Origin: a virus
Virus record (IMG/VR): IMGVR_UViG_3300027751_001020
Span: 26,067-90,066 of that record
Strand: one strand, 5' to 3'
Length of the DNA stretch: 64,000 bases
How positions within the stretch are numbered: position 1 is the first letter of the stretch; each line of letters opens with the position of its first letter. Below the pieces are notes generated by a model that saw only the letters and a list, made by a program, of their open reading frames with translations, was not told the DNA's origin and searched no databases. Positions 62,662 to 63,993 of the stretch are shown here, one piece after another. The translations under genes and the position numbers were made by a program.

Positions 62662-62970
62662 ATGTTACGCAAACCAGATTCAATCCCAGCAGGGGATACA
62701 GTTATTACAGACCCAGTAATGGAACCGTTTTTTATCTCTAAATCTCAATCAGGCGGTTATACCGTTTACGAAAGAGTAATTAAAGGTAATAACGATACAG
62801 AGTATATTAAAACAGTATCTTATCCAGCTTCATTTAATGGAGCATTAAAAAGAGTAGCAAATGAAAAACTCAATAATGGTGAAAGTAAAGTATATTCTCT
62901 TAATGAGTATGTCACTCGTTGGGAAAATATTCAAAAAGAAATGTTGTCAATAACTTCAATTGAGTTGTAG
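62662..62970 (+). CDS. Hypothetical protein
   Basis: ORF track; operonic spacing. Confidence 0.65.
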   Translation: MLRKPDSIPAGDTVITDPVMEPFFISKSQSGGYTVYERVIKGNNDTEYIKTVSYPASFNGALKRVANEKLNNGESKVYSLNEYVTRWENIQKEMLSITSIEL

Positions 62971-62972
62971 AC

Positions 62973-63113
62973 ATGTTAGAAACGGTTATGCACGCCTTAG
63001 GAATATGTGGGGATGTTCATCCTAAATTAGTTGACACTATCCCTTTTATTCACTATCTTAATAATTCAGCGTTTGCCTATACGCTTAAGAATACCTGGCA
63101 AAATTTAATATAA
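62973..63113 (+). CDS. Candidate unannotated 46-aa ORF MLETVMHALGICGDVHPKL...
   Basis: ATG 2 nt after the previous stop; its stop is 5 nt before the queC ATG. Confidence 0.45.
   Translation: MLETVMHALGICGDVHPKLVDTIPFIHYLNNSAFAYTLKNTWQNLI
63068..63101 (+). ncRNA. Candidate H-type pseudoknot leader upstream of queC
   Basis: P1 AGCGT/ACGCT; loop TTGCC complementary to downstream GGCAA; A-rich linker. Confidence 0.5.
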
Positions 63114-63118
63114 TTACA

Positions 63119-63913
63119 ATGGCAAAAAATGTTGTAGTATCCTTATCAGGAGGGATGGATTCCTCTACTCTATTATTACGTGCTCTTTCTACGTATGACA
63201 CAGTAACAGCTTTATCTTTTAACTATGGTCAGAAACATAGTGTTGAACTTCAAAGAGCTCAAGCACTTGTTGACTACCTTAAGTCTAAAGGTCAAAATGT
63301 TACTTACCAATTAATTGAACTAAATGGATTAGTTAACCTATTAGACTCAGCTTTAGTATCAGGCGGAGATGATGTACCGGAAGGTCATTATGAGCAAGAT
63401 AATATGAAAGCTACTGTAGTACCTAACCGAAACAAAATCTTTAGCTCTATCACACAAGCTGTAGCTTTATCAGTAGCAAATAGAACTGGTAATAATACAG
63501 ATATTGCTTTAGGTATTCATGCCGGAGATCATGCCGTATATCCAGACTGTAGACAAGAGTTTAGAGATGCAGATGATGAGGCATTTAGACAAGGAAATTG
63601 GGATGCTGATAAGGTTGGGTTTTTTACACCATATTTATTAACTGATAAGTTCGGTATTTTACAAGATGGTTTAATTTTATGTGATCTGTTAGATTTAGAC
63701 TTCGATGAAGTTTACAAAAGAACTAACACCTCATACAAACCTTATCCATCAGGTAACTCAGATTACAAATCAGCATCTTCAGTAGAACGTATTGAAGCGT
63801 TTATTAAACTTGGTCGTAAAGACCCAGTTCAATATGAAGATGAAACTGGCCCAGTAAGCTGGGAAGTAGCTAAGTCTGCAGTTGAGAAGGTATTAGCCGA
63901 TCACGCAGGTTAA
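63119..63913 (+). CDS. queC: 7-cyano-7-deazaguanine (preQ0) synthase QueC
   Basis: SLSGGMDS, FNYGQKH..EL, TVVPNRN, GIHAGD...YPDCR.EF. Confidence 0.95.
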   Translation: MAKNVVVSLSGGMDSSTLLLRALSTYDTVTALSFNYGQKHSVELQRAQALVDYLKSKGQNVTYQLIELNGLVNLLDSALVSGGDDVPEGHYEQDNMKATVVPNRNKIFSSITQAVALSVANRTGNNTDIALGIHAGDHAVYPDCRQEFRDADDEAFRQGNWDADKVGFFTPYLLTDKFGILQDGLILCDLLDLDFDEVYKRTNTSYKPYPSGNSDYKSASSVERIEAFIKLGRKDPVQYEDETGPVSWEVAKSAVEKVLADHAG

Positions 63914-63920
63914 AAGGATT

Positions 63921-63993
63921 GCCTCCGTAGCTCAGTTGGTAGAGCAGCTGATTTGTAATCAGCAGGTCATCGGTTCGAATCCGGTTGGAGGCT
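63921..63993 (+). tRNA. tRNA-Thr(TGT), CCA not encoded
   Basis: Acceptor GCCTCCG/TGGAGGC, D-arm GCTC..GAGC, anticodon arm GCTGA-TT-TGT-AA-TCAGC, T-loop TTCGAAT. Confidence 0.97.

Follow-up and report, generated by a model that had tools for sequence, protein, structure and literature searches.

Directly upstream of a queC-like gene in the phage DNA analysed here lies a real, strongly supported and previously uncatalogued structured RNA. It is a 34-nt H-type pseudoknot (63068-63101, plus strand), and copies of it occur in some 150 distinct contexts of uncultured immuto-like phages and in the cultured Flavobacterium phage immuto. Positions are those of the window, i.e., the whole 64,000-nt stretch under study, which is a portion of a 104-kb IMG/VR phage record. 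The element is best classed as a riboswitch-like variant among the small H-type pseudoknot regulators. We put at roughly 50% the probability that it is a phage-lineage-specific, riboswitch-like translational regulator of queC that senses an intermediate of the 7-deazaguanine pathway. No publication on a queC leader motif of this kind was found in the literature searched.

Fold of the pseudoknot in the window

The first helix, P1, pairs AGCGU (63068-63072) with ACGCU (63081-63085) and encloses an 8-nt loop (63073-63080). An 11-nt linker (63086-63096) then leads to positions 63097-63101, which are complementary to 63073-63077, and the ATG of queC (63119) follows 17 nt past position 63101. All of these letters, coordinates and distances agree with those given in a sequence-only reading of the window made beforehand by a model. 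That reading counted five base pairs in the second helix, P2. The inner three, GCC (63075-63077) with GGC (63097-63099), proved to be conserved among relatives, whereas the outer UU/AA pairs are canonical in only 30 and 49 of 73 sequences, which is not clearly above shuffled controls. The conserved fold of subtype A, to which the window copy belongs, is a 3-bp P2 with a 2-nt loop 1; formation of the outer pairs would leave no loop 1 and would be sterically awkward.

The remaining parts are read on the same strand. Loop 1 (UU, 63073-63074) is able to lengthen P2 in the window copy and is free to vary among relatives. Loop 2 is UAU (63078-63080), and loop 3 (63086-63096) consists of variable letters (63086-63089) followed by the conserved AAUACCU (63090-63096). 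The 3' strand of P2 (63097-63101) is made up of the conserved GGC and two A residues, after which an A/U-rich, unstructured spacer (63102-63118) runs to the queC start codon.

Judged from the window sequence alone, this fold is within chance. The MFE z-score of the single sequence was 0.0 against shuffles and thus uninformative, a 5+5 bp H-type pseudoknot arose in 2% of shuffled 79-nt leaders, and the 64-kb window holds 52 sites with the same pairing potential. These sites are divided unevenly between the strands, with 38 on the plus and 14 on the minus strand, which is probably an effect of strand composition. It is comparison that establishes the fold as real, because the element is conserved upstream of queC and covaries in both of its helices.

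Covariation and invariant positions

Across 73 distinct sequences, P1 showed standard pairs in 99.7% of cells, with both-sided changes in four of its five pairs (50 such cells). This degree of pairing and covariation was equalled by none of 500 shuffles and by no slid register. Versions of P1 include AGCGU/ACGCU, AACGU/ACGUU, AGGAU/AUCCU, AGUGU/ACACU, AGGUU/AACCU and CGGAU/AUCCG, and the closing pair is U-A in all 73 sequences (63072 and 63081 in the window). Both MAFFT and covariance-model alignments mis-register the P2 of subtypes B and C, and the counts for this helix were therefore taken from a structure-registered parse. P2 occurs in ten complementary versions over three subtypes, namely GCC/GGC, ACC/GGU and GCC/GGU in subtype A, five different 5-bp helices in subtype B and two in subtype C. 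The three junction-proximal P2 pairs are free of mismatches in every copy, and the outermost core pair covaries, taking the forms G-C, A-U, G-U, C-G and U-A, and is never unpaired.

The subtypes differ in how the parts are spaced. Subtype A runs through P1, two variable letters, GCC, UAU, the 3' strand of P1, two to six variable letters, AAUACCU and GGC. Subtype B has a loop 1 of 4 nt, a 5-bp P2 and AU as its loop 2, and subtype C a loop 1 of 3 nt, a P2 of equal length and a single U as its loop 2; in both, loop 1 begins with U. Every copy seen has U as the letter preceding the P1 3' strand, as part of CU in subtype C and of AU otherwise. Loop 3 measures 8-12 nt and has AUACCU as its final hexamer in 67 of the 73 sequences, with AAUACC, CAUACC or CAUACU in the remainder.

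The invariant set thus comprises the closing U-A pair of P1, the U that precedes its 3' strand (63080 in the window), the CC/GG of P2 next to the junction and AUAC near the end of loop 3. The strongest constraint is located at the P1/P2 junction, since the invariant letters cluster there while the distal pairs vary freely. The sequence-only reading had picked out the U at the end of the loop and the U-A closing pair as peculiarities of the window; both turn out to be invariant throughout the family and are therefore selected features rather than noise. G-U pairs are found in both helices and only on the queC sense strand, the opposite strand giving A-C instead, from which it follows that the folded molecule is the queC-sense RNA. 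The earlier proposal of a compact H-type pseudoknot tied to queC, with the size and shape of preQ1-I, is borne out by this conservation. It had named missing conservation or covariation among homologues as grounds for rejection; the motif is clearly conserved upstream of homologues, and both of its helices covary.

Distribution among phages

The closest cultured relative of the window is Flavobacterium phage vB_FspM_immuto, in which a matching block of about 45 nt lies within the 76-nt intergenic gap directly before queC. An exact two-block pattern, built from the letters common to the window and immuto, was run on IMG/VR and matched at least 117 contigs. Of 119 loci among the matches listed, 116 have a QueC-like ATG 16-23 nt past the end of the motif; of the three exceptions, two have too little sequence for an ORF call and one carries ATA in place of ATG. 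Variants that this first pattern missed came to light in loci retrieved by way of QueC and in three additional pattern scans. A covariance model derived from the matched copies hit 68 of 80 loci that had been fetched by QueC protein similarity. The motif is absent from 31 of 162 distinct queC upstream regions, and several of these 31 genes start close behind the preceding ORF. Sequence flanking the motif could not be aligned between loci.

The association with queC is exclusive, as the motif was never seen before a transporter or any other que gene. Within the 64-kb window, both halves of the motif are unique and the covariance model finds a single copy, with no second one near queD or folE. 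Carriers outside the phages were also sought. The exact subtype-A pattern, applied to one genome each for 185,579 prokaryotic species, gave two real matches and six chance matches, and both real matches are MAG contigs that resemble the motif-bearing phages. In 150 additional Flavobacteriales genomes, the model found only matches of 20-26 bits, the seven best of which had neither the fold nor queC on inspection. Immuto was the sole carrier among 50,697 phage records, and in the bacterial genomes searched there was no occurrence outside phage-like contigs. For 30 motif-bearing contigs, all completeness estimates scale to fragments of genomes of about 160 kb, which fits a single immuto-like lineage. 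The remark in the sequence-only reading that a phage-borne sensor would be unusual holds in part, in that the motif seems to be confined to one phage lineage.

One contig, L267 (134-210 and 524-585), preserves what looks like a replacement event. A relic subtype-A motif is followed there by a queC start truncated to a remnant of seven codons, and about 390 nt past the relic stand a subtype-B motif and an intact queC. This arrangement suggests that motif and queC were replaced jointly, as a cassette.

The queC gene, its spacer and the upstream reading frame

The putatively regulated gene (63119-63913, plus strand) encodes a QueC-like protein of 264 aa. It matches Pfam QueC with an E-value of 3e-37, scores 125.7 bits against TIGR00364, which is under the cut-off of 150.3, and aligns to solved QueC structures over residues 3-176 only (the first two thirds). 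Bacterial QueC proteins have zinc-binding cysteines in the C-terminal region; by eye, serines occupy the places where these would be expected. The immuto homologue is treated as QueC by Hutinet et al.

From the P2 core to the AUG, the spacer measures 18-25 nt (mode 20) across loci, is 95% A/U and is essentially unstructured. RNAalifold detected no conserved helix besides P1 in the alignment, and the leader holds neither a terminator nor a helix that would sequester the start site. An alternative pairing of the P2 5' strand with the AUGGC of the start codon was considered and dropped, as the second codon is not conserved.

In the window, the element is situated inside a 46-codon ORF (62973-63113, plus strand) rather than in an untranslated gap. 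This ORF is a homologue of immuto gp24 (BLASTP E 1e-9), its stop (63111-63113) lies 5 nt before the queC ATG, and its last ~15 residues are the translation of the RNA motif. The gp24-like gene encodes a hydrophobic stretch and a conserved Cys-Gly-Glu/Asp-His motif. Reading frames of this kind run through the motif in 29 of 125 contexts (23%), are all the same gp24-like gene and use the one constant frame that the motif leaves open, the other two being mostly closed. In the window, ribosomes ending the upstream ORF must melt the knot, and reinitiation could bypass or interact with a switch.

The open frame in the window and 28 other contexts is what would be expected if the conserved letters encoded the C-terminal tail of a gp24-like protein and were not under selection as RNA. 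However, among 130 distinct subtype-A contexts, an ORF of at least 40 codons passes through the motif in only 34, whereas an in-frame stop lies within 30 nt upstream in 60 and inside the motif in 11. In immuto the motif lies between genes, 1.1 kb downstream of the end of gp24, and the compensatory changes in the helices alter the encoded residues. As the motif is equally conserved without the gp24-like gene, selection acts on the RNA. Nor can a pseudoknot with G-U pairs on one strand be a feature of duplex DNA, as a promoter or operator site would require, and a promoter would recur in the genome, which the motif does not. A repeated promoter or operator motif was rejected on the uniqueness of both halves in the window and the single model match. 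With explanations by coding or by a DNA site largely refuted by the P1/P2 covariation and the counts of ORF contexts, we regard conservation at any level other than RNA as very improbable.

Relation to preQ1 riboswitches and other leader elements

When the whole window was searched against Rfam at the gathering threshold, there was no match beyond the neighbouring tRNA. The Rfam preQ1 families gave no match at E<=10 on positions 62900-63250, and none at E<=5 on subtype B, subtype C and immuto-type loci. At all thresholds applied, the element was without a match to any family in Rfam. The likeness to preQ1-I (RF00522, types I-III; B. subtilis queC, T. tengcongensis, E. coli) is nevertheless considerable, as this class is likewise an H-type pseudoknot of about 34 nt (PMC11625349). 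Both have a P1 of 5 bp and a short and weak P2, and they may also be alike in a loop 1 that usually begins with U (in most, though not all, copies of the phage motif) and in a purine-rich loop 3 that crosses P1, which here is A-rich and ends in the conserved AAUACC. Both also concentrate their invariant letters at the P1/P2 junction and share the placement directly upstream of a queuosine-precursor gene, the phage motif always preceding a QueC-like gene.

The differences concern the features by which preQ1-I is defined, namely a strictly conserved cytosine before the P1 3' strand (UC or AC) and a G-C floor, with the ligand held at the P1/P2 junction (PMC11625349). The phage motif has an invariant U at the counterpart of this specificity cytosine and an invariant U-A pair instead of G-C as the floor of the pocket. 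Its loop 3 ends in AAUACC, whereas in preQ1-I an A-tract is followed by the P2 strand. Moreover, its P2 has no Shine-Dalgarno contact, some 20 nt separate the knot from the AUG, and the element was found in one phage lineage only. Because the cytosine specificity base and the G-C floor are both missing, we do not file the element as preQ1-I, yet it may work like one. The idea of a preQ1-I-like variant put forward in the sequence-only reading thus stands as regards size, shape and the link to queC, and falls as regards membership in preQ1-I itself, there being no Rfam match and neither the C nor the G-C feature.

More distant systems offer partial parallels. The preQ1-II and preQ1-III classes (RF01054, RF02680) are HLout pseudoknots of 80-100 nt, as opposed to the 34-nt H-type fold here, and their Rfam models found no match. 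A conserved, covarying aptamer before a ligand-related gene, as in riboswitches generally, is present in these leaders, but none of the usual expression platforms (terminator, start-site or Shine-Dalgarno sequestration) is recognisable. The translational operator of T4 gene 32 consists of a 5' pseudoknot and an unstructured A/U-rich leader, and the gene product is an RNA- and ssDNA-binding autoregulator. The phage motif shares with it the small H-type pseudoknot, the unstructured A/U-rich run to the start codon and the occurrence as a single, gene-specific copy. It differs in that queC is a metabolic enzyme gene, the spacer is only 18-25 nt long and there is no known binding protein.

Pathway setting and candidate ligands

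The phage record encodes FolE, QueD, a QueE-like enzyme, QueC and QueF. In immuto, all G in the DNA is replaced by formyl-preQ1, and the paper describing this modification does not mention a riboswitch (bioRxiv 10.1101/2023.04.13.536721). Replacement of every G makes control of flux through the pathway plausible. QueF was found in 11 of 30 motif-bearing records; three of the records are near-complete, and two of these lack it while having QueD. These two (G154 and G155, the records of L064 and L055) are 100% and 97% complete and encode QueD and QueC with no detectable QueF; their end product may differ from the formyl-preQ1 of immuto and be of a preQ0 type. On the assumption that the element senses a pathway metabolite shared by every carrier, preQ0 or CDG would perhaps fit better than preQ1, because QueF is missing in some of them, with the proviso that the host could supply QueF. 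The adenine-like ligand suggested in the sequence-only reading finds nothing in its favour besides the U of loop 2.

Proposed mechanism and alternative explanations

We envisage that immuto-like phages of Flavobacteriia have a cis-regulatory RNA in their queC leader, with the element as its aptamer-like core. The sense transcript folds into an H-type pseudoknot with a P1 of 5 bp, a P2 of 3-5 bp, a loop 2 ending in the invariant U and a loop 3 ending in AAUACC. P2 is only marginally stable, and docking of a small molecule of the 7-deazaguanine pathway at the invariant P1/P2 junction could lock the knot; the candidate ligands would be preQ0 or CDG, with preQ1 less likely. The locked knot would stand about 20 nt upstream of the AUG, bordering the A/U-rich landing pad. 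In Flavobacteriia, Shine-Dalgarno pairing is rare and initiation depends on unstructured A-rich leaders, from which we infer that the state of a knot at the 5' edge of the landing pad would set ribosome loading and so alter translation of queC. The simplest direction would be feedback repression.

Junction-centred invariance with covarying distal pairs resembles what is seen in ligand pockets. In addition, the single copy, the specificity for a metabolic enzyme gene and the 34-nt architecture of preQ1-I (PMC11625349) count in favour of a riboswitch. Against it count the lack of a classical expression platform and a knot that ends some 20 nt from the AUG. Furthermore, a U replaces the specificity cytosine and the pathway intermediates are all guanine-faced, so that analogy offers no obvious ligand. 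The knot would be melted by ribosomes of the upstream ORF in 23% of contexts, the window included, and 31 of the 162 distinct queC upstream regions do without the motif. As only one gene in one phage lineage is concerned, the customary argument for a ligand, drawn from association with several genes, cannot be made.

The same observations can be read as a protein-bound translational operator, in which ribosome loading at the A/U-rich spacer is governed by a protein on the pseudoknot, either from the phage (a dedicated repressor, or QueC or a further pathway protein in autoregulation) or from the host. The layout would correspond to that of the gene 32 operator, where the pseudoknot nucleates gp32 on the leader, and the conserved single-stranded UAU and AAUACC could equally be protein contacts. 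The absence of a riboswitch-type expression platform and the restriction to one lineage, as expected for a lineage-specific partner, point the same way. However, the element is a single copy specific to a metabolic enzyme gene, QueC is not known as an RNA binder, no candidate binding protein has been identified, and both the minute size of the element and the concentration of its invariant letters at the junction are what small-molecule pockets typically show; we consider an operator of this kind unlikely, though it is the main rival. A constitutive structural RNA that senses nothing, whether as a 5' stabiliser, a processing signal, an insulator of the landing pad or a spacer modulating termination-reinitiation, strikes us as quite unlikely. 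Such a role would agree with the fixed distance to the AUG in densely packed polycistronic DNA, with the 29 of 125 contexts in which the stop of the upstream ORF lies within the spacer, shortly ahead of the queC ATG, and with the relic on L267, which suggests that motif and queC travel as one cassette. It leaves unexplained why unpaired letters and junction pairs are strictly invariant while other pairs covary, and why queC alone carries the motif in a 160-kb phage.

A riboswitch-like regulator of queC is the explanation that we prefer, and a bolder version of it can be put forward tentatively, with the odds leaning somewhat against it. The motif might represent a fourth, structurally distinct class of 7-deazapurine riboswitch, restricted to phages, with U as its specificity base and a U-A floor. 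Such a riboswitch would have as its ligand an intermediate of DNA hypermodification, whether preQ0, CDG or a derivative (formylated or other), possibly recognised through a non-Watson-Crick or adenine-like face, and would exert Shine-Dalgarno-free translational control suited to Bacteroidota-type initiation.

To our knowledge, virus-only riboswitch classes are very rare, and none has been described for pathways that rewrite the bases of phage DNA. A 34-nt candidate with strong covariation in immuto, a cultured and chemically characterised phage, is directly testable. The invariant U and U-A pair at the positions of preQ1 recognition amount to a natural experiment on a change of ligand or recognition in the smallest riboswitch fold. 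Since the host phylum initiates without Shine-Dalgarno pairing, the mechanism could also show how an RNA switch acts there. If a protein binds instead, the motif would count as a new translational operator of phages, acting on the gene of a DNA-modification enzyme.

Genes downstream of queC

Seven tRNA genes (Thr, Leu, Ser, Asp, Ala, Glu and Gln) directly follow queC (window 63921-63993; contig L390, 88-671), of which only tRNA-Thr falls inside the window. In bacteria, tRNA-Asp (GUC) is among the tRNAs that carry queuosine. Past queC and the tRNA cluster, the record encodes a radical SAM enzyme, a carbamoyltransferase, QueD, the QueE-like radical SAM enzyme, FolE, a MazG-like protein and a two-domain QueF. 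This deazaguanine island spans positions 683-11376 of L390 (about 90580-101275 of genome G000:C1). Around queD, the queE-like gene, folE and queF, it holds a 352-aa radical SAM enzyme, a 551-aa carbamoyltransferase, a non-specific endonuclease and a MazG-like pyrophosphatase, and the carbamoyltransferase hints at further modification of the base.
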